Virus genome (UHGV): UHGV-0348865
From: a virus
Length of the DNA: 64,000 nt
Direction: 5' to 3' (one strand)
Part shown: in pieces, positions 1 through 64,000 of the stretch
Position numbering within the stretch: position 1 is the stretch's first letter
Layout of the letters: each line of letters opens with the position of its first letter
Notes under the pieces: model-generated
The model's database searches: none
What the model saw: only the letters and a program-made list of their open reading frames with translations
What the model was told of the DNA's origin: nothing
Program-made: the position numbers and the translations under genes

Positions 1-599
1 AATTGACTGTTTGTTCCGTTGTTAGTTAACTTGACCCCAGCATATCTTCCGTTGACTGTAGAGTTAACACCCCACGTAGCTTCATACTCAGAGAGTTTCA
101 TATACTGAGAAAGGCTTCCGTTGATATTTTGCAGTTCTGTCTGAACAAGAGCAATCTCTTGACCTTGATCGTTAACAATACCTTCTACTGTCTGAATCTT
201 AGTTGTGTTACCTTCGATGCTAGTCTTAAAACCAGATACAGTGCTTTCCAGCTTCACAGGAGGTTGAACAGAATTATCCCAAATATCCTCAGTGGACAGG
301 TTCCCCATCTGGGTTTGGATATCTGCAATAGCTGTTTCTATCTCTGTAGTAATTCTATTCTCAAGCCCATCAAATTGTAGATTCATTGCATTAAGAGCTT
401 TAATACGAACATCAATCTCTTCGTGAATTTCATCTATAGCTTGGAACATTTGGTTAGTAGCTGTACTGACTTTTTGTAATTCATCATACACGGCTACGTT
501 ATATGTTTCTGTGTCCTGTACATTATTGAGAAACCCAACGTTGTACGGGAGTGTGGTGTTGTTACGACCTGTATTCTTTCTAAATCCTCCAGCACCCAT
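1..599 (-). CDS. tail-associated structural protein, N-terminal part (partial; ORF runs off the window start)
   Basis: ATG at 599-597 on minus strand preceded by AGGAGGG ribosome-binding site; frame stays open to coordinate 1; predicted coiled-coil-like sequence; context next to tail genes. Confidence 0.5.
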   Translation of the reverse strand, partial: MGAGGFRKNTGRNNTTLPYNVGFLNNVQDTETYNVAVYDELQKVSTATNQMFQAIDEIHEEIDVRIKALNAMNLQFDGLENRITTEIETAIADIQTQMGNLSTEDIWDNSVQPPVKLESTVSGFKTSIEGNTTKIQTVEGIVNDQGQEIALVQTELQNINGSLSQYMKLSEYEATWGVNSTVNGRYAGVKLTNNGTNSQ

Positions 600-625
600 T
601 CCATAATCCCTCCTTGCTAGATAAT

Positions 626-656
626 CTAAAAACAATAAAAGGGGCACGAAGCCCCT
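626..656 (-). terminator. rho-independent terminator downstream of 662..3679
   Basis: GGGGCTTCGTGCCCC hairpin followed by TTTATTGTTTTT on the minus strand. Confidence 0.7.
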
Positions 657-661
657 TGTTA

Positions 662-3600
662 TTATCTTCGTCCGCCAACAGCAAACTCTATCGTTAACCC
701 ATTGATAGCAGCATTACTGTTAACATCATTATCTATAACATTATAGAAAAGGTATGGATGGTTCAGTCTCACAGAGACATGCCTGTCAACACCGATCGTG
801 TATGTCTTAGATGTGTGTGGGTGTCCATATTCATTTGAGAATTGACTACCACCAGCTTCAAATATGTAAGTACCTGAACCAGTTGTCTGAGGTCTGAACC
901 TGTTGATATGTTTCTGATTCCATTCGTTAGTGATGTTATCAAAATCCATACCAGTTCTTTCTAACCTCATCTCCAGTGGTTTTTCTATAACCTTATCATT
1001 AAGCCTATCATAGAAGTAATCCAAAGCACCAACATCCACTTGATAGAATCCCCTCAAGAATGAACCTACTATCGTAACCCTCTGTCTAAAGTTTGTTGCA
1101 TCCTTTCTCCAAACAAGTTCTTTGATAGATGGGTCATCCCAAGTGATCTCTTGGAAGTCAGACCAGATTGGACCTCTCTCTAAAACAGGAGGGTCAACCA
1201 GACCGATACACTGAGCATAAGGGATAGTACGGAAAGACCAAGTATCAAACTCATAATTCCATACAGCAGCTTTAGTGCAAGCGAAGCTTTCTTTCGGCTC
1301 TCCCGGACCTACATAGAGAACCCAAACTTCTTTCTTATCCTGATGCAAGTGTACTCGAGTAGCTAGAGGGTTAACCAGACAAACCTCGTTAATCAGCATG
1401 TTCTTAACACGGTTAGATGCAATTGACTTCTTGGTTGCACCATTGTGTAAGATCACATCGTTCTGAGTAACTACGAAATGACTACCTTCTACTTCAACCA
1501 CACACTCAGGAGCAAGGATACCAGAGTCATTAAAGAGTTTCTTGAACATCAGAGGTTGGTATGTGTTATTAGTTGGAGAACCAATATACGTTTCAAACTC
1601 TGTATAAACGAACAAGTAGTCTTTAAGAGGCAGGATATCAATCAAGCTACCATTAGAATCGGCTAGGTCAATGTAACCAGCATACCCATTCTCTAGAGCC
1701 TGAGTCTGCCCTACGATGTTAGAAGCTAAGTCCGAAGACACAACTCGATCATAGGCAAAGTCATCCCACAGTGTAGGAGCCTTGTTCTCATTGGCAAAGT
1801 TAGACCAACGAAGACGAAGCGGATAGTTAGTGGTAACACCAGAAGCATTAGCCTCTCTCATATTCAGAGCAAAAAGACGGTTGTTAAAAGATCTCACTCT
1901 CTCACATTTCCAGTTAAACTTCTTGACTGAAGGGTTTCCATCACTATCAACAACTGTTTGCTCACCCCACCCCGGAAGGTCTACAAAGTATTCTGATTCG
2001 AATTCTTTTACCTGAGGAGTTTCATAGTGAGTTGTAGCAACTGCACAGTTAGAGATAACAGCGTGATACCAAGGGTAGTCATCAAAAGCATCGTAATCCT
2101 TCTGAGTCATCTGACTGACAGTGCATGTTACGTTAATCTCTCCTTTACGAAGAGCAACCAGTTTGATAGATTTACCAGTGACTGAAGTTGTAGAAACATA
2201 ACCAGTTTTATCAACAGACCACTGATAAGAGTACTCACCTTCTGGAGAAGCTGTGGCTGTAATGACAATCTCTTCACCAACATCAAGGGAGGCGCTGACA
2301 ATATCTAAGGTTACAGACGACAAAGGGGTTGCCAGTAAAGAAGCTCTTGCAAAACCTTCAATGTCATTCACGTTAGAGTAGTCGTAGAAGTTGTTACCTT
2401 CATACATCCCTGACGTATCAATACCGGATGTAGGCTCAGCAAAATAAACCGTCTCTTCACTTTCAGGAGGAGTTACTACTTCTTCCTCTTGAGTTTCTAC
2501 TGACTCTGACACAGGAGCGGCAAATGCCATAGCACTTGTTCTCATTGTCCTTCCAGCTAAATCCACACGTACAGTACAGACAGCAACTCTGTTACCTTCT
2601 TCAGTGGTAGCTGTAATCTCAGTAAAACCAGCAAGCAGAGCGTTGATCGTCCCTTGTGTGCTAGTCCCTGATACTGTTGCAATATTTGGGTTAGAAGAGG
2701 TCCAAGTAATGTTTTGATTAGGGGCGTTAGCAGGAGAAAGGGTGGCAGTTAAAATATACTGAGAACCTCTACTCACAGTAACATCTGACTGGCTTAAAGA
2801 GATACTATCAATCTGAGGGATAGAAACAATCTCACAAGAAGCAGTCTTAGTCCCGTTATCAGCAGTGATTGTTACATTACCTTCTCCATTCGCTGTAATG
2901 ACAGCAGTTAAAGAGTTGGCGTTAGGGGTTACAGATACAATAGAAGCATTATTGCTGGACCAAGTTACAGGGGTTTTGCCAGTAACAGCCGTGAGGGTAG
3001 TAGTCCCTCCTTTACGAATTGTAACAGTATCTTGACTCAAGAAGATGCCTGAATCACCATCGATGATATTAACAGCAATCTGAGCCACTACGGATTCATT
3101 GGCAGTAGAGATAGTTACTACAAGATTACCCTCTTTCTCAAAAGATGTTAGAGTAGCAAGTTTAGAGTCACTAGGGTCTACCGTAATACTTCCATAGGAT
3201 GAGTTACTAACCTCCCAAATAAGATCGGTATTGTTAGCATCAGCAGGGAGAAGAGAAACCTCTAGATTCTTGGTCTGATTGAAGTTCATTGAGATAGTTG
3301 ATTCTTTAGGAACGATCTGAGAAACAACTGGATAAATCTTAATTGAGGCAGAAGCCTTCTTAGTGACTGTAGCAACCTTACGGCTAATATCAGTCAAGCT
3401 TTCATCTGTCAGTTTATATAACTTCTTATCAGTACCTACAACAAGAAAGCTATTACCTGCGCTATAATAATCGAAAGGCATAGAAACGAAAGACAGAGGG
3501 GTTAAATCCTTATCTTCATCTACATAAGAAAGAGGGGCATTGCCCCCCGTCTTAAATACTCTCTGCTCAACAAATCGAGCATTTATAGCATTAGTGAAAG

Positions 3601-3679
3601 CATTAGGAGCTAAGTCTGTCGGAGCCTGATCAGCGATAACGCCTACAGCACCTAGTGACTTTATTGGATACAGCGCCAT
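662..3679 (-). CDS. large tail protein with repeated Ig-like (Big_2-type) domains; possible tail spike / host-specificity protein
   Basis: 1005-aa ORF; repeated approx 80-aa Thr/Ser-rich beta modules resembling bacterial Ig-like domains; position in tail module. Confidence 0.5.
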   Translation of the reverse strand: MALYPIKSLGAVGVIADQAPTDLAPNAFTNAINARFVEQRVFKTGGNAPLSYVDEDKDLTPLSFVSMPFDYYSAGNSFLVVGTDKKLYKLTDESLTDISRKVATVTKKASASIKIYPVVSQIVPKESTISMNFNQTKNLEVSLLPADANNTDLIWEVSNSSYGSITVDPSDSKLATLTSFEKEGNLVVTISTANESVVAQIAVNIIDGDSGIFLSQDTVTIRKGGTTTLTAVTGKTPVTWSSNNASIVSVTPNANSLTAVITANGEGNVTITADNGTKTASCEIVSIPQIDSISLSQSDVTVSRGSQYILTATLSPANAPNQNITWTSSNPNIATVSGTSTQGTINALLAGFTEITATTEEGNRVAVCTVRVDLAGRTMRTSAMAFAAPVSESVETQEEEVVTPPESEETVYFAEPTSGIDTSGMYEGNNFYDYSNVNDIEGFARASLLATPLSSVTLDIVSASLDVGEEIVITATASPEGEYSYQWSVDKTGYVSTTSVTGKSIKLVALRKGEINVTCTVSQMTQKDYDAFDDYPWYHAVISNCAVATTHYETPQVKEFESEYFVDLPGWGEQTVVDSDGNPSVKKFNWKCERVRSFNNRLFALNMREANASGVTTNYPLRLRWSNFANENKAPTLWDDFAYDRVVSSDLASNIVGQTQALENGYAGYIDLADSNGSLIDILPLKDYLFVYTEFETYIGSPTNNTYQPLMFKKLFNDSGILAPECVVEVEGSHFVVTQNDVILHNGATKKSIASNRVKNMLINEVCLVNPLATRVHLHQDKKEVWVLYVGPGEPKESFACTKAAVWNYEFDTWSFRTIPYAQCIGLVDPPVLERGPIWSDFQEITWDDPSIKELVWRKDATNFRQRVTIVGSFLRGFYQVDVGALDYFYDRLNDKVIEKPLEMRLERTGMDFDNITNEWNQKHINRFRPQTTGSGTYIFEAGGSQFSNEYGHPHTSKTYTIGVDRHVSVRLNHPYLFYNVIDNDVNSNAAINGLTIEFAVGGRR

Positions 3680-3688
3680 AATTCCTCC

Positions 3689-4492
3689 TTAGCTAATACG
3701 TCTCCAAATGTGAGCTGCTCTGAATGGTGGCAAAGTGTTAATAGGTTGACGAGAGATATCATCACGACCAAGACTTACACTACCAGAGATTGTATGAGTA
3801 TGTGTGTCATTATCAGTTCTCTGACTATAACCACCACCCGGACTATACCAGTTTGGTGAGCTGTTATGACCACTAGCATCCCCACGACCAAACACCATAT
3901 TGTGACTGTGAGTATTACTGGATAGAGAGAAGCTGGAGCCATTAACTGTCATCAAAGGTACGTTCTCAGTTCGAATAGTATTGAAGACACGACCACCAGT
4001 ACCACCTGCTTGGAACTCAACTCTCTGAGCATTAGGAACAGTTCCATCAGGGTTTACTACACCAGTACCCATAATGACACCAGTCACTTTAGCCCAAGAA
4101 CCAAACCCTAAGGAGATTGAATCACCTGGGTTAATGTCTTCTTCAGTGATATAGTAAGAACCAATTCGATAGAGCTTATTCTCCATCCAGTTCTTCATGA
4201 ACGCTTCCATCTGGCCTTTAGTAACAACATCCTTGTCACCAGTTCCCGGAGTAACATTCTTGATCATAAGACCACCAACATCCATTGCATCACCAGTAAA
4301 CTTAAGCTTCTCTGACATAATCTTAAAGGTATCAGAATCTATATCAACCGGTTCTGTAACATTGGGGAATGTGTTCTGTAACGTTTGTTTAATGAGGCGG
4401 ATTTGAGCCGCCCCTTCGTAGATGTAATCCCTGTCTCTAGGATAGAGCGGGTTTAAGTCGGTAATAACTACCGCATTAGTTTCGATAGCCAA
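3689..4492 (-). CDS. tail fibre-like protein (tail collar-type domain)
   Basis: 267-aa ORF, Gly-rich with collar-like segment; adjacent to tail genes. Confidence 0.45.
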   Translation of the reverse strand: MAIETNAVVITDLNPLYPRDRDYIYEGAAQIRLIKQTLQNTFPNVTEPVDIDSDTFKIMSEKLKFTGDAMDVGGLMIKNVTPGTGDKDVVTKGQMEAFMKNWMENKLYRIGSYYITEEDINPGDSISLGFGSWAKVTGVIMGTGVVNPDGTVPNAQRVEFQAGGTGGRVFNTIRTENVPLMTVNGSSFSLSSNTHSHNMVFGRGDASGHNSSPNWYSPGGGYSQRTDNDTHTHTISGSVSLGRDDISRQPINTLPPFRAAHIWRRIS

Positions 4493-21225: not shown

Positions 21226-21253
21226 TTGACAGTCTTTTCCTTTATTATATAGT
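21226..21253 (+). promoter_or_regulatory. sigma70-type promoter (TTGACA-16 nt-TATAGT) upstream of first early ORF
   Basis: consensus -35 at 21226-21231 and near-consensus -10 at 21248-21253. Confidence 0.55.
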
Positions 21254-25167: not shown

Positions 25168-25190
25168 GTAAGACAATATAAATAAACATA

Positions 25191-25718: not shown

Positions 25719-25924
25719 TCACTAACATTTCAGAATTTAAGAAAGCACCTTCCCGCTTGTTAGGCCGTCGTGTTGTATATCTTTACAGCAATAAAGGTAA
25801 ATGTACAACCGGACGAATCACAACGGTGAGTAGTGCTAACAAGAAACTACTAAAGTTATGTGTGACTATGGATGATGGTACAATCCTGCTACGCAGTTGG
25901 AAGTCATTTAGTTTACTCGATTAA
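25715..25924 (+). CDS. hypothetical small protein
   Basis: ATGA overlap coupling with upstream ORF. Confidence 0.4.
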   Translation: MITNISEFKKAPSRLLGRRVVYLYSNKGKCTTGRITTVSSANKKLLKLCVTMDDGTILLRSWKSFSLLD

Positions 25925-25993
25925 GTTATTTGTTCAAGCCTGTCACCTTGATGGGCTTGCCCGATATAATTTATCACTAAAAGGAATAAGATT

Positions 25994-26437
25994 GTGGCTA
26001 AATCTAAAATCAGCATGAAGGGCGGGCGTTGTTTTGCTATCTCTGAACTGGAGAAAGAGAAGCCAAAGGCAACTAATCACGTTAGCAAGCGTAGTCTAAA
26101 ACGTCGTGCTGCAAAAGCTGAGGCTGAATCCCATGTTCCTTCCAGTGTGGCAAAACGTATAGGCCATCGTGTCCATCGGGCTGATGCGTTGTTGTTAGCT
26201 GATCATAAACGCTCTTTGTTAAAGAGCGGGGGAGCTAAAACAGAAGAGGAGAAGAAGTTAGAAATCTTCTGTAATGGTCGCACCCGTGGTAAACAGAAGT
26301 TTAAAGGTAGTACGAAAGACCCGCAGGCTTTCCCTAAGACAAGTCAGTGTGCGCCTGATGTATTCTACGCAGATAGTAAACACAAGTGGGGTGTTGAGAA
26401 ATACATTGACCCCATTAAAGAGGCGAGGGTAAAATGA
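25994..26437 (+). CDS. basic hypothetical protein
   Basis: 147-aa Lys/Arg-rich ORF. Confidence 0.4.
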   Translation: MAKSKISMKGGRCFAISELEKEKPKATNHVSKRSLKRRAAKAEAESHVPSSVAKRIGHRVHRADALLLADHKRSLLKSGGAKTEEEKKLEIFCNGRTRGKQKFKGSTKDPQAFPKTSQCAPDVFYADSKHKWGVEKYIDPIKEARVK

Positions 26438-26616
26438 TTTATTCAGAGATTCTAAATAAAGTCAGAGAGATGCGGCAAGGTGATGCAGTAGTTGATGTTC
26501 TGGTTCATCTGGTAGCATCCTTGCAAGAAGAAAACGATTTGCTAAAGAAGGAAATAGAATCTAGAAGTAGAGAAAGGGATAGGAAATCATTATGGAATAG
26601 CACTCCTCTCTTTTAG
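26434..26616 (+). CDS. hypothetical small protein
   Basis: 60-aa ORF overlapping stop of previous gene. Confidence 0.35.
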   Translation: MIYSEILNKVREMRQGDAVVDVLVHLVASLQEENDLLKKEIESRSRERDRKSLWNSTPLF

Positions 26617-26627
26617 TACTATGACGC
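26611..26627 (+). promoter_or_regulatory. conserved 17-mer TTTTAGTACTATGACGC (copy 1)
   Basis: identical 17-mer recurs at 34695-34711; both followed by terminator-like hairpins. Confidence 0.45.
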
Positions 26628-26672
26628 TCTTTCTGTAGCGTCGTGCCCTCTCCCCATTTGAAGCTTCCGAAT

Positions 26673-26696
26673 AGCCGCCTTTGAGCGGCTTTTTGC
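26673..26696 (+). terminator. terminator-like hairpin
   Basis: AGCCGC-loop-GCGGCT followed by TTTTT. Confidence 0.5.
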
Positions 26697-26757
26697 GTTG
26701 CTGTAAGTACATTTGCGAGTGTATTTATAGCAACGGTCATGTGTTGCTTTCAGGTTT

Positions 26758-26783
26758 GCCCCGGCTACGGCTGGGGCTTTTTT
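26758..26783 (+). terminator. rho-independent terminator
   Basis: GCCCCGGC-TACG-GCTGGGGC hairpin followed by TTTTTT. Confidence 0.7.
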
Positions 26784-26807
26784 ATACCTATTGTATAGGA
26801 ATTTTCT

Positions 26808-27125
26808 ATGAAAAACCCGTTCGAGCTGATAAGTACAGACCCTGTAGAGGCTAACATGCTTTCATTGAAATCCAAGCTGATCATCATTCTTACGAAGTTA
26901 ATTCGTGATCAGGGTTGGTCGCAGTGTGTTGCCGCAGAGAAGCTAGGTGTTAGCCAGCCGAGGATTAGTAGCCTTATGAATGGACAGCTTTCAAAGTTCT
27001 CCATCGACACATTGTTGAAATTGATTCTCAAGGTGGGGTATGAGCTGGACATGAACTTCACCCCATTAAACACCAGATCGCCACTTGCAATAGCTGTAAA
27101 AGGTGATGATATAAGTTACAAATAG
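26808..27125 (+). CDS. HTH XRE-family DNA-binding protein, HigA-like antitoxin type
   Basis: central motif QGWSQCVAAEKLGVSQPRISSLMNGQLSKFSIDTLLKL typical of addiction-module antidote HTH proteins. Confidence 0.6.
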   Translation: MKNPFELISTDPVEANMLSLKSKLIIILTKLIRDQGWSQCVAAEKLGVSQPRISSLMNGQLSKFSIDTLLKLILKVGYELDMNFTPLNTRSPLAIAVKGDDISYK

Positions 27126-27238
27126 TAAGATACCGCCTATTCCGAAAGGGATGGGTGGAGCTATAAGCATCTTTTCGAGGGTGTTTATTGAAACAACAAA
27201 ATAGGAGGTAGCAAGTTCTGATAACAACGGCACAGCTA

Positions 27239-27628
27239 ATGTTGACATTGACTATTTATTATGAGGCAGGGAATCAGCCAACCGCATGTAAGGCTTTAGT
27301 TGCGGATACCGTGATAAATAGAATGGCCCAACGAAAACTGACCGCTGAACAGGTGATAAGACAAAAGAACCAGTTTGAGTGGATTCCGGTACTATTAAAA
27401 CAGGAGAAACCTTATAAACGTTATGTAAAGCTGATTCGTGATAAAAATCCGATGACTAAGCAAGCCATTGGAGAAAGCGAGCGACTTGCTAAACGTGCCC
27501 TTAAGAAGAATTATGTTCCTCTGTACAGTGGGACTTACTTTCAGAGTAAGAGCGAAGGGGTGCCAAAATGGTATGCCAATCCTATGTATTGTGGTGATTT
27601 AGTGTTCGATAATAGCTCTAGGGAATAA
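27239..27628 (+). CDS. SleB-like cell-wall hydrolase (Hydrolase_2-type) domain protein
   Basis: motif IYYEAGNQ...KALVADTVINRM resembles the SleB/Hydrolase_2 signature. Confidence 0.45.
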   Translation: MLTLTIYYEAGNQPTACKALVADTVINRMAQRKLTAEQVIRQKNQFEWIPVLLKQEKPYKRYVKLIRDKNPMTKQAIGESERLAKRALKKNYVPLYSGTYFQSKSEGVPKWYANPMYCGDLVFDNSSRE

Positions 27629-27827
27629 TCACTAGTGCCAGATTTGACAAACTAAATTCCTTTATAAACCAACCACTTAGTAAATTTATTGAAAAAGATG
27701 GTAGTATTCTGGGACTATGGGTAATGCTCTGTATATAGACCCTTTGAAAATTTCTTAGAAAATAAGTTTACTAAATATAACTTACTTAAATAATATTACT
27801 TTTAATCTCTGATAAGGGGTAAATAAT

Positions 27828-31340: not shown

Positions 31341-31419
31341 GGGGGTGTACCTCACCCGTCTTCTAAACGGGCGTTAATCGAGTAATTGGAGTATGCAGGT
31401 TCGAGTCCTGTCTCCCCCT
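31341..31419 (+). ncRNA. tRNA-like element with canonical T-arm; possible tRNA (anticodon-like loop CTTCTAA would give UCU/Arg) but D-arm not resolved by eye
   Basis: T-arm GCAGG-TTCGAGT-CCTGT; 7-bp acceptor-like pairing GGGGGTG/CTCCCCC; flanked by 10-nt inverted repeat AGAGTTCTTA/TAAGAACTCT. Confidence 0.4.
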
Positions 31420-36244: not shown

Positions 36245-37438
36245 ATGTTTCCAGTAACATTAGAAGATACTGAAGGTAATGTTTTAACGGTCAACCCTCC
36301 TTGTTATGGGTTCCTTCAGCTTCGCAACTATAATGGTGGCGTTGATGAAGACGACGAAGATGATGACTACTTCGACCCTAACATGTATGAGGCAACTCAT
36401 GGATGGAATATGCACGTTCGAGTGTGGCATAAAGAAGCCAACGTTCGTAGTGCTGACGGGGAAGAATTCTTGTTAAGCCGAGAGATGGATATGTGTAAAA
36501 TCAAGCATATCTGGAACTCCGGAACTCATATGAAGATGTTAGGTTTTAGACGTTGGCGTGATGAAAAACCTGTATCCGCAGCTTTAGGTTGGGGTGCAAT
36601 TGATCACGAAGGCGAGCTTAAAAATAACATTGAGCACTGGAACGACAAAAACCCTGAACATCGAACCACACCTCGTGCTGTACTGGAAGCTATGGAAGCA
36701 TTTGTGGACAAAGATCGTCCCTCCTGTTTACGCTGGCACGAGAAAGGTTTTATGGGGGTAGCAACTGAGAACGTTCCTGCTGATCGTTGTCTGTTCTATT
36801 TGATGTTAGACCGAACCTTCTATTGTGAAGATGAAGAGAGTCAAGTTGAAACCTTCCTTCATAAATGGTTGGTTGAAGGTTGGACAATCCTTCAAGCTTA
36901 TGTCTACTCACGAATGGTTAGCACTCACACTAACCTCTTGGGAGAAAAGAAAGCAACTCTGGTTGGTAACGATTGGGATGCTTGTATTTTCCCAGCGTCA
37001 CTATTTACGGTTGGCATGGCTGATAAATATGCCGAAGCATTTAAAGTGCCTTGGCGTCAACAGTCATATAGAGATGGTTGTGGTCACTTTCGTGATGAAG
37101 ACTTTAAGTGGATTCATTATGAGAATGATGAAACAGCAGAGCTACGAGTGAACAACTCAATGTTCTTGCCGGTTATGCACCCTGATCTAGTAAAAGATGA
37201 GTCAGAAATACTCAAAGGTGACAACCTTCTGGTTACCTTTGCTCGTCGGGTATCTAAAGATGAAAGAACAGCTGACAGATTAGTCTACGCTTATCGCGCT
37301 GAGACTAAAGATATGTTCAATATTTATAATATTGTTCAGCGATTCAGTAGCGGAACTCTGGACCAAAGTTCGGAGTATTCAGTGATTCCGTCCTCTGAGT
37401 GGGATGGTATTATGAGCGGATTATTTTTAGGAAAATAA
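36245..37438 (+). CDS. hypothetical protein, first gene of ligase/amidotransferase cluster
   Basis: 397-aa ORF, no motif recognised. Confidence 0.5.
   Translation: MFPVTLEDTEGNVLTVNPPCYGFLQLRNYNGGVDEDDEDDDYFDPNMYEATHGWNMHVRVWHKEANVRSADGEEFLLSREMDMCKIKHIWNSGTHMKMLGFRRWRDEKPVSAALGWGAIDHEGELKNNIEHWNDKNPEHRTTPRAVLEAMEAFVDKDRPSCLRWHEKGFMGVATENVPADRCLFYLMLDRTFYCEDEESQVETFLHKWLVEGWTILQAYVYSRMVSTHTNLLGEKKATLVGNDWDACIFPASLFTVGMADKYAEAFKVPWRQQSYRDGCGHFRDEDFKWIHYENDETAELRVNNSMFLPVMHPDLVKDESEILKGDNLLVTFARRVSKDERTADRLVYAYRAETKDMFNIYNIVQRFSSGTLDQSSEYSVIPSSEWDGIMSGLFLGK

Positions 37439-63279: not shown

Positions 63280-64000
<721 letters not shown>

Follow-up and report, generated by a model that had tools for sequence, protein, structure and literature searches.

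The window analysed here is the whole of a 64,000-nucleotide stretch of the virus genome UHGV-0348865, and the element in question is a small helix-turn-helix (HTH) gene at 26808-27125 on its plus strand, an orphan antitoxin homologue. The open reading frame (ORF) runs from ATG to TAG, encodes 105 residues behind a ribosome-binding site AGGA (26798-26801), and has exactly the boundaries given by an earlier sequence-only reading. The window belongs to Kuravirus (Gordonclarkvirinae), a genus of phiEco32-like virulent podophages with elongated heads according to database taxonomy; positions 25900-27700 match ~100 Escherichia and Shigella phages at 80-99% identity, and proteins identical or nearly identical to gp124, gp120 and gp117 of phiEco32 are encoded in it. 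It covers ~64 kb of a kuravirus genome of ~77 kb, with ~13 kb lying beyond it. Genes are on the minus strand up to ~20.7 kb and on the plus strand from ~21.3 kb, with strong sigma-70-like promoters at 21226, 23012 and 23315 and terminators at 25190, 26673, 26758 and 29736. The HTH gene is placed between the homologues of phi32_120 and phi32_117. On the SU10/phiEco32 map, early genes are coding sequences (CDS) 69-125 (PMC4281155), which agrees with the early-region location proposed from the sequence alone.

By profile comparison, the 105-residue protein is assigned to HTH_37, the partner family of Gp49/HigB-like toxins, and not to HigA in the strict sense. The Pfam HTH_37 model (PF13744) is matched at E=9e-17 and 61.1 bits against a cut-off of 27, residues 14-82 aligning with model positions 9-77 of 80, and the general XRE-family model HTH_3 is matched more weakly (30.5 bits, cut-off 23). 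PHROG 2339, named 'HTH DNA binding protein', is matched at E=5.5e-28. In the NCBIfam search, the HigA equivalog TIGR02607 was not reached (15.4 bits, cut-off 47.7), and neither was the cut-off of the HipB model. The sequence-only reading had called the protein "HigA-like" and proposed such a classification of HigA against the Cro/C1 families as a check; the outcome upholds an antidote-protein homologue at the superfamily level, but not a HigA proper.

An AlphaFold2 model built from 20 homologues (overall pLDDT 80.8) has a disordered-looking N-terminus, a long helix (residues 12-35), the HTH (39-57), another helix (66-76) and, at the C-terminus, a beta hairpin. Among solved structures, the closest are the structural-genomics HTH_37 proteins 2A6C and 2O38, followed by HigA2 of M. 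tuberculosis, HipB, HigA of S. pneumoniae, restriction-modification controller proteins and SinR; the structure search pointed to no specific function beyond an XRE-type HTH near HTH_37 structural-genomics entries and antitoxins. The HTH motif itself (26922-26978, plus strand) is modelled as helices 39-46 and 50-57 with pLDDT >90, and in its recognition helix, SQPRISSLM, Q50 and R52 are invariant across homologues. Outside the DNA-binding domain, conservation marks an N-terminal motif, PFELxxxDxVE (residues 4-14; 26817-26849, plus strand), in which P4 and E14 are kept in at least 90% of sequences and D11 is invariant in toxin-paired and orphan homologues alike. This segment is probably flexible, given its low model confidence (mean pLDDT of 50 for residues 1-10 and 77 for residues 11-20), and is a candidate for the toxin-binding part of the protein. 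The phage copies retain every family-invariant residue, including D11, K21-S22-K23-L24, F84, P86 and P92 outside the HTH.

The close relatives of this protein on bacterial and plasmid replicons (47-66% identity) are linked to a toxin gene. At all of their loci examined, a Gp49 (PF05973) gene, which PGAP names 'type II toxin-antitoxin system RelE/ParE family toxin', lies 10-50 bp downstream on the opposite strand. These relatives come from a mobilisable Yersinia plasmid, Pectobacterium, Vibrio harveyi, V. rhodolitus, Aeromonas, several Pseudomonas, Halomonas and Paraglaciecola, and from 3-5 kb ColE1-type plasmids of E. coli and Enterobacter such as pIGRW12. The Gp49 toxin of pIGRW12 is WP_176450233.1, and those of the 3.0-kb and 3.07-kb E. 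coli plasmids are WP_072842283.1 and WP_057696255.1. More distant relatives (33-43% identity) stem mostly from Acidobacteriota and other soil lineages, and 20 of their 28 loci show the canonical toxin-first, same-strand operon. Gp49/HTH_37 is a type II toxin-antitoxin pair of the HigBA superfamily, and the Gp49 toxin has been described as a ribosome-dependent mRNA interferase (PMC7157771; PMC11980606). The toxin pairing of the relatives, together with this literature pairing, therefore makes 'addiction-module antidote', which had been read from the HTH signature, the correct label at the superfamily level.

The gene order of these modules is worth recording. The gammaproteobacterial Gp49/HTH_37 clade nearest to the phage protein is arranged tail-to-tail throughout, at 10-50 bp (L004-L016, L021-L030, L062-L067, L069 and L070), for example with antitoxin and toxin genes at 531-839 (+) and 856-1188 (-) of L064, or at 3413-3751 (+) and 3767-4085 (-) of L067. 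Each of the two genes has an upstream region of its own, which for the antitoxin gene includes a conserved sigma-70 promoter; the gp49 family, by contrast, has been described in the literature as toxin-first operons (PMC11980606). Literature searches returned no paper on a convergent RelE/HTH arrangement and no functional study of pIGRW12. Overlapping convergent transcripts could be part of the control of such modules.

In phiEco32, SkaterBoy_Bas90 and KM01, the slot that in the window spans 26786-27195 is filled by a gene whose product has collagen repeats and a YadA-type membrane anchor. This gene is gp119 of phiEco32 and is annotated 'agglutinating adhesin' or 'tail protein'. Alignment with these three phages shows that the HTH gene precisely replaces the ORF of this adhesin-like gene in the early accessory slot. 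At the left junction, the window stays close to them (2 mismatches) through the upstream terminators and the leader to TATAGGAAT (26802), and from TTCTATGAAAAA onward it reads as the antitoxin gene of plasmid pIGRW12; CTATGAAA at the start codon is common to both recombination partners. The right join lies around a TGGTGTAA-like microhomology (27107-27114) that overlaps the stop codon of the plasmid antitoxin, and the end of the window ORF (GDDISYK-stop) is the 3' end of the adhesin-like gene (GAGVSYEW-stop). Sequence of the plasmid-module type thus extends over ~26803-27114, DNA similarity to plasmid and bacterial alleles is limited to 26804-27114, and the last codons (27115-27125) come from the replaced gene. 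Beyond them, the 3' untranslated part of the slot forms two tandem hairpins on the plus strand, at 27133-27158 (with a GAAA loop) and 27163-27186 (-27.4 kcal/mol, z -4.8, no T run), which are common to phiEco32, Bas90 and KM01, are absent from phage Paul and derive from the adhesin-like cassette. A divergent metagenomic contig (L068) keeps them as well, the first stem differing in sequence yet still pairing. Because the ribosome-binding site, the last codons and the 3' hairpins of gp119 are all re-used, we conclude that the import was confined to the antitoxin ORF. In donors, the convergent toxin gene begins ~15 bp past the antitoxin stop codon, and it was excluded at the junction. Comparison with Paul had suggested a ~400-bp autonomous 'moron' cassette at ~26789-27195, an interpretation that the alignment with phiEco32, Bas90 and KM01 replaced by the ORF swap.

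Searches for a toxin at the locus came back empty, in line with the absence of a toxin ORF on either side that the sequence-only reading had reported. A Gp49 profile hidden Markov model (HMM), built iteratively from 46 toxins neighbouring homologues, found nothing in stop-to-stop ORFs of at least 45 residues across the 64 kb of the window or at the loci retrieved from phages 172-1 and SGF2, and, with filters off, nothing in ORFs of at least 20 residues within 26600-27400. Six-frame translation of 27101-27260 and blastn at word size 7 revealed no toxin remnant. A remnant beside the gene was also sought by tblastn with three Gp49 toxins, which gave nothing near the locus; the best hit in the window (E=0.011, 37163-37384) was treated as chance, as it lies inside a 397-residue ORF and was missed by the family HMM. 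In 50,697 phage records, tblastn with a plasmid toxin yielded no kuravirus hit; it did hit mycobacterial prophages with intact modules, one Helicobacter phage record, three Enterobacter T4-like phages and a 3.7-kb 'Klebsiella phage' record. The 60-residue ORF upstream (26434-26616; pI 5.75, 11 D+E against 10 K+R) matches no toxin family and is a conserved backbone gene, PHROG 22185, also present in kuraviruses that lack the HTH gene, which bears out the earlier description of it as unlike such toxins. The gene has no adjacent cognate toxin, and the stop codon of the antitoxin marks the end of the imported DNA.

Across kuraviruses, the slot exists in three states. It holds the adhesin-like gene in phiEco32 and several others, is empty in Paul and many other records, and holds the HTH gene in the window, in 172-1, SGF2, SR02 and pEC-N1203-2Af.1, and in contig L068, that is, in 4 distinct deposited genomes among ~100 matched records besides the window and the one metagenomic contig. 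All six kuravirus alleles are intact, with a pairwise synonymous divergence (dS) of up to 0.42 and a ratio of nonsynonymous to synonymous divergence (dN/dS) of 0.04-0.43, and L068 retains the full ORF although it is 75-83% identical to the window in nucleotides over the region. These values show that the gene is under purifying selection. In a neighbour-joining tree, the kuravirus alleles are sister to a clade of pIGRW12 and 3-kb plasmids, at 63-73% identity, the SGF2-type allele being 73% identical to the antitoxin of pIGRW12. Two forms of the allele can be told apart by helix 5, which reads LLKLILKVGYEL in the window and 172-1 and LLEMVFKMGYKL in the others (L003, L071, L072 and L068), the latter form being identical to that of plasmid pIGRW12. 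The tails differ too: one is VKK-stop, and the other, VKGDxxSYK-stop, is frameshifted by 1 nt and reads into the last codons of the adhesin gene. The two forms may reflect mosaic recombination or changes of specificity.

Capture of this gene is not confined to kuraviruses, as toxin-less copies occur in three further, unrelated phage groups, and in the neighbour-joining tree three of the four groups fall beside alleles of their own host group. Vibrio cholerae phage Kuja (Ackermannviridae) has a copy that shares 77% identity with a toxin-paired allele of Vibrio rhodolitus. In three lambdoid prophage-like contigs, the gene has a nin-region position flanked by the replicative helicase gene and ninB, and the allele closest to theirs is from a Yersinia plasmid (65%). 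The Enterobacter Karamvirus phages EnC15, KMB17 and KMB20, which are T4-like, contain a 542-bp segment 99.8% identical to the E. coli plasmid pIGRW12, in which the antitoxin gene is complete but the toxin gene lacks its first 43 codons and retains only the 3' 69. In EnC15 (L019, 3881-4561), and likewise in KMB17 and KMB20, this segment is inserted in frame in a T4-type pinA, the gene for a Lon protease inhibitor, such that the 142-residue 'inhibitor of host Lon protease' consists of PinA residues 1-40 fused to the complete HTH_37 antitoxin; the truncated toxin gene follows the antitoxin on the opposite strand. The comparison thus points to a consistent pattern, in which the gene always accompanies a toxin on the bacterial replicons examined and stands without a working toxin in these phage lineages.

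The DNA upstream of the gene bears on how it is expressed. A first intrinsic terminator of the phage backbone (26673-26695, plus strand; stem AGCCGC/GCGGCT at 26673-26690, then a T run) ends the upstream early transcription unit and is kept in phiEco32, Paul, Bas90 and KM01, with or without the HTH gene. A second, stronger one (26758-26785, plus strand; -20.3 kcal/mol, z -4.05, with a TTTTTT run) has an 8-bp stem (26758-26777) with 7 G-C pairs, followed by TTTTTTAT; it is annotated as a terminator in phage Paul and is kept in every kuravirus aligned, L068 retaining the hairpin with a different stem sequence. The sequence-only reading held that these two terminators isolate the gene transcriptionally. 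Both are real, but they are conserved backbone features found also in phages without the gene, and they do not define an autonomous unit. They are followed by the 5' leader of the accessory slot (26786-26804, plus strand), which is inherited from the adhesin-like gene and not from the plasmid donor and contains the palindrome TATAC-N5-GTATA (26783-26797) and the AGGA site. No sigma-70-like site was found between the terminator and the ATG. The element ATTGTATAGG (26790-26799) was considered as a promoter for its resemblance to the gp36 motif AATGTA (1 mismatch) and to the extended -10 of plasmid antitoxin promoters. We make no promoter claim for it because WWTGTATA is not enriched in the window (11 observed, 11.9 expected) and because the element belongs to the phage slot, its phiEco32 counterpart reading ACTGTATAGG. 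The plasmid alleles have a conserved sigma-70 promoter, TTGAAA-17-TGTATAAT with TATATA palindromes, ~85 nt 5' of the ATG. This promoter/operator is absent from the phage copy, whose upstream DNA is phage backbone, and since it was not imported the gene depends on phage signals. With no convincing promoter in the stretch from the terminators to the ATG, the likeliest origin of expression is read-through of the early transcript, and the gene is probably transcribed with the early genes past the two terminators.

We interpret the gene as a captured orphan antitoxin that may well neutralise a plasmid toxin released when the phage protein gp79 shuts off host transcription, and on the comparative evidence we give this interpretation an even chance. 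Transcription shut-off is a classical route by which toxins with unstable antitoxins are released in type II systems. The proposed trigger is present in the window, where tblastn locates a protein 100% identical to phiEco32 gp79 (44702-44947, plus strand), outside the locus and relevant here as context; the N-terminus of the phage sigma factor gp36 was likewise matched with the phiEco32 protein, at 63742-63999. gp79 is a phage inhibitor of host sigma-70 transcription, and through it phiEco32-type phages shut off host and early transcription (PMC12276001). We envision that a phiEco32-like ancestor took only the antitoxin ORF from a module on small mobilisable ColE1-type enterobacterial plasmids, by an illegitimate recombination that replaced the coding sequence of gp119. 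On a host with the cognate module, gp79 would stop sigma-70 transcription, the unstable plasmid antitoxin would no longer be replenished, and the freed Gp49 toxin would cleave mRNA and abort the infection, unless antitoxin made early by the phage bound and neutralised it and thereby rescued the infection. What the comparisons establish is the identity and descent of the gene, its toxin-less state, the exact exchange of one ORF for another, the purifying selection on it and its repeated capture by unrelated phages. We infer beyond this that the protein would bind the toxin, cross-react with the alleles of its hosts and be made in time, and that the plasmid module would restrict phages lacking it.

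Several points weigh against this interpretation. No promoter was found for the gene, which lies directly behind two terminators. The module is rare in E. coli, occurring in 10 of 5426 complete genomes and always on plasmids; this rarity is in keeping with the scattered occurrence of the gene among phages, but limits its general importance. Neither the antitoxin nor the toxins match a PADLOC defence model. The case for neutralisation is a comparative one, made from the retention of non-HTH residues of paired antitoxins, and conservation is as strong at the DNA-binding residues as elsewhere in the protein. Finally, identity between the phage protein and the closest plasmid antitoxin known is only 63-73%, and specificity is usual among type II antitoxins.

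The conservation of the DNA-binding residues leads to the strongest alternative, in which the protein is solely a transcription factor, an XRE-type repressor that silences a host, plasmid or phage promoter, such as that of the plasmid module, and neutralises no toxin. The intact HTH with its high model confidence and invariant Q50 and R52 agrees with this, as do the annotators' name 'HTH DNA binding protein', the restriction-modification controller proteins and SinR among the structural neighbours, and the plasmid homologues, which stand behind a conserved sigma-70 promoter with TATATA-type palindromes and are presumably autoregulated. However, the non-HTH N-terminal motif and the C-terminal strands are conserved as in toxin-paired homologues, which argues for a second function, and all close non-phage relatives are linked to a toxin. 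The gene is also missing from most kuraviruses and stands outside the core gp36/gp79 programme, and the window holds no repeated operator-like sites. Neither of the two palindromes beside the gene, tried as operators, is enriched in the window: TATAC-N5-GTATA occurs 3 times against 1.8 expected and is phage-slot DNA, not imported DNA, and CCTAT-N3-ATAGG occurs 4 times against 1.5 expected, its other exact copy (32738) lying inside tightly packed coding sequence. The suggestion made from the sequence alone that the gene could simply encode a Cro-like regulator does not survive in the sense of a core regulator, because few kuraviruses carry the gene and because such sites are lacking in the window. 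Pure DNA binding is, in our view, a rather unlikely account of the gene, though the best placed of those that compete with neutralisation.

A second alternative is that the gene is a neutral passenger of phage-plasmid recombination in a permissive slot and brings the phage no benefit. A slot that tolerates three states, a patchy distribution, the rarity of the target module in E. coli and a C-terminal tail that is the product of frameshift and fusion and varies among alleles would all be expected of a passenger. Against this stand the intactness of all six alleles at the dS given above (up to 0.42), their dN/dS of 0.04-0.43, the retention of the gene in a lineage 75-83% identical in nucleotides over the region, and independent capture in three other phage lineages, each time kept without a working toxin. 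Purifying selection and recurrence together make a neutral passenger improbable. That the gene belongs to a complete toxin-antitoxin module of the phage itself, with a toxin encoded elsewhere in the genome or diverged beyond recognition, we regard as very improbable indeed: ~13 kb of the genome does lie outside the window and temperate mycobacteriophages do carry intact Gp49 modules, but the sensitive family HMM found no Gp49 in the window, tblastn gave no hit in any complete kuravirus genome of the collection searched, the donor sequence does not extend past the antitoxin stop codon, and the neighbouring ORFs are backbone genes that occur also in phages without the HTH gene.

Set beside known systems, the captured antitoxin most resembles the antitoxins of Gp49/HTH_37 modules, namely Tad-Ata, the N15 gp49 type, the M. 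tuberculosis HigB1/HigB3 type and the modules of Tn3-family transposons (PMC7157771; PMC11980606), with which it shares family, length, architecture and invariant residues. It differs from them in lacking a toxin gene and a promoter or operator of its own, and in residing in a virulent phage. Canonical HigA (TIGR02607; Proteus, E. coli) is likewise an XRE-type HTH antitoxin of RelE-superfamily toxins and a distant structural neighbour, whereas the phage protein belongs to another Pfam family with Gp49, not HigB_toxin, as its partner. The general HTH fold is shared with the Cro/CI repressors (HTH_3/XRE; 30.5 bits to HTH_3); unlike these, the gene lies outside an immunity region, has no divergent promoter/operator array, belongs to a virulent phage and is missing from most of the genus, and the homologue in the lambdoid prophage-like contigs is also in the nin region and not in the immunity region.

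Phage-encoded antitoxin mimics such as pseudo-ToxI and Dmd are used as counter-defence. An orphan antitoxin has been demonstrated to act in this way against DarTG, in the case of the DarG-like NADAR protein AdfN of T-even phages (PMC11825919), and a DarG2-like protein of chimalliviruses is another antitoxin-type phage counter-defence (PMC13309987). The kuravirus gene corresponds to these orphan antitoxins in being a toxin-less antitoxin homologue at an accessory position of a virulent phage, patchily distributed and repeatedly acquired from bacteria. The known cases, however, are experimentally proven and are of types III and IV (RNA or enzymatic) or unrelated proteins, while the present one is a type II, binding-type HTH antitoxin directed against a RelE-fold toxin and is known from sequence alone; the literature searched contains no documented theft of such an antitoxin. 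A broader and more tentative proposal, possible in our judgement yet short of even, is that the convergent Gp49/HTH_37 modules of small enterobacterial, Vibrio and Aeromonas plasmids are active abortive-infection systems, and that type II HTH antitoxins are anti-defence genes stolen repeatedly as bare ORFs, by Kuravirus, Karamvirus, Kujavirus and lambdoid phages, each copy being matched to the allele of its own host and, in kuraviruses, offsetting the gp79 shut-off.

Some further features of the slot and its surroundings deserve mention. The adhesin-like genes lie at 41719-42516 of L073 (phiEco32 gp119), 1127-2044 of L018 and 1402-1992 of L017, and their products combine the YadA-type outer-membrane anchor with a good signal peptide (MKAIVLSSILALSVMASPVIA...). 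Their annotated start codons extend back through both terminators and are probably placed too far upstream. In phage 172-1 (L001, 3662-3784), an additional ORF for a 41-residue hydrophobic peptide replaces the spacer between the conserved terminators, just 5' of the HTH gene, and is among the signs of a local hot spot for small accessory genes. The slot is followed by the gp117 homologue (27239-27628, plus strand; 129 residues), which scores 32 bits with Hydrolase_2, a family of SleB-type cell-wall hydrolases, and is encoded in the early region, distant from the lysis genes. A strong Shine-Dalgarno-like AGGAGGT (27205-27211) lies 28 nt from its annotated ATG, so that the gene may start elsewhere or be preceded by a mini-ORF. 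Farther on, a tRNA at 31341-31419 (plus strand) is detected by Rfam (33.2 bits, gathering score 29) and not called by ARAGORN; in phiEco32, a tRNA-Arg is annotated between phi32_106 and phi32_107, in a part of its early region that seems to correspond.

The proven phage counters to toxin-antitoxin defence are mostly enzymatic or RNA antitoxins or unrelated inhibitors, and the gene described here offers a clean and cheap test case beside them, with a protein of 105 residues, candidate targets on 3-5 kb E. coli plasmids, and relatives in which the slot is empty or otherwise filled. The independent captures, above all the 99.8% identical plasmid fragment with its truncated toxin, give comparative support that the single-genome label 'HTH DNA binding protein' misses. 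Should neutralisation not be confirmed, the gene would be an ordinary accessory HTH protein. If it holds, it would establish a defence role for an unstudied family of plasmid toxin-antitoxin systems, would matter for the selection of therapeutic kuraviruses, and would show the precision with which phages swap ORFs within their accessory expression slots.

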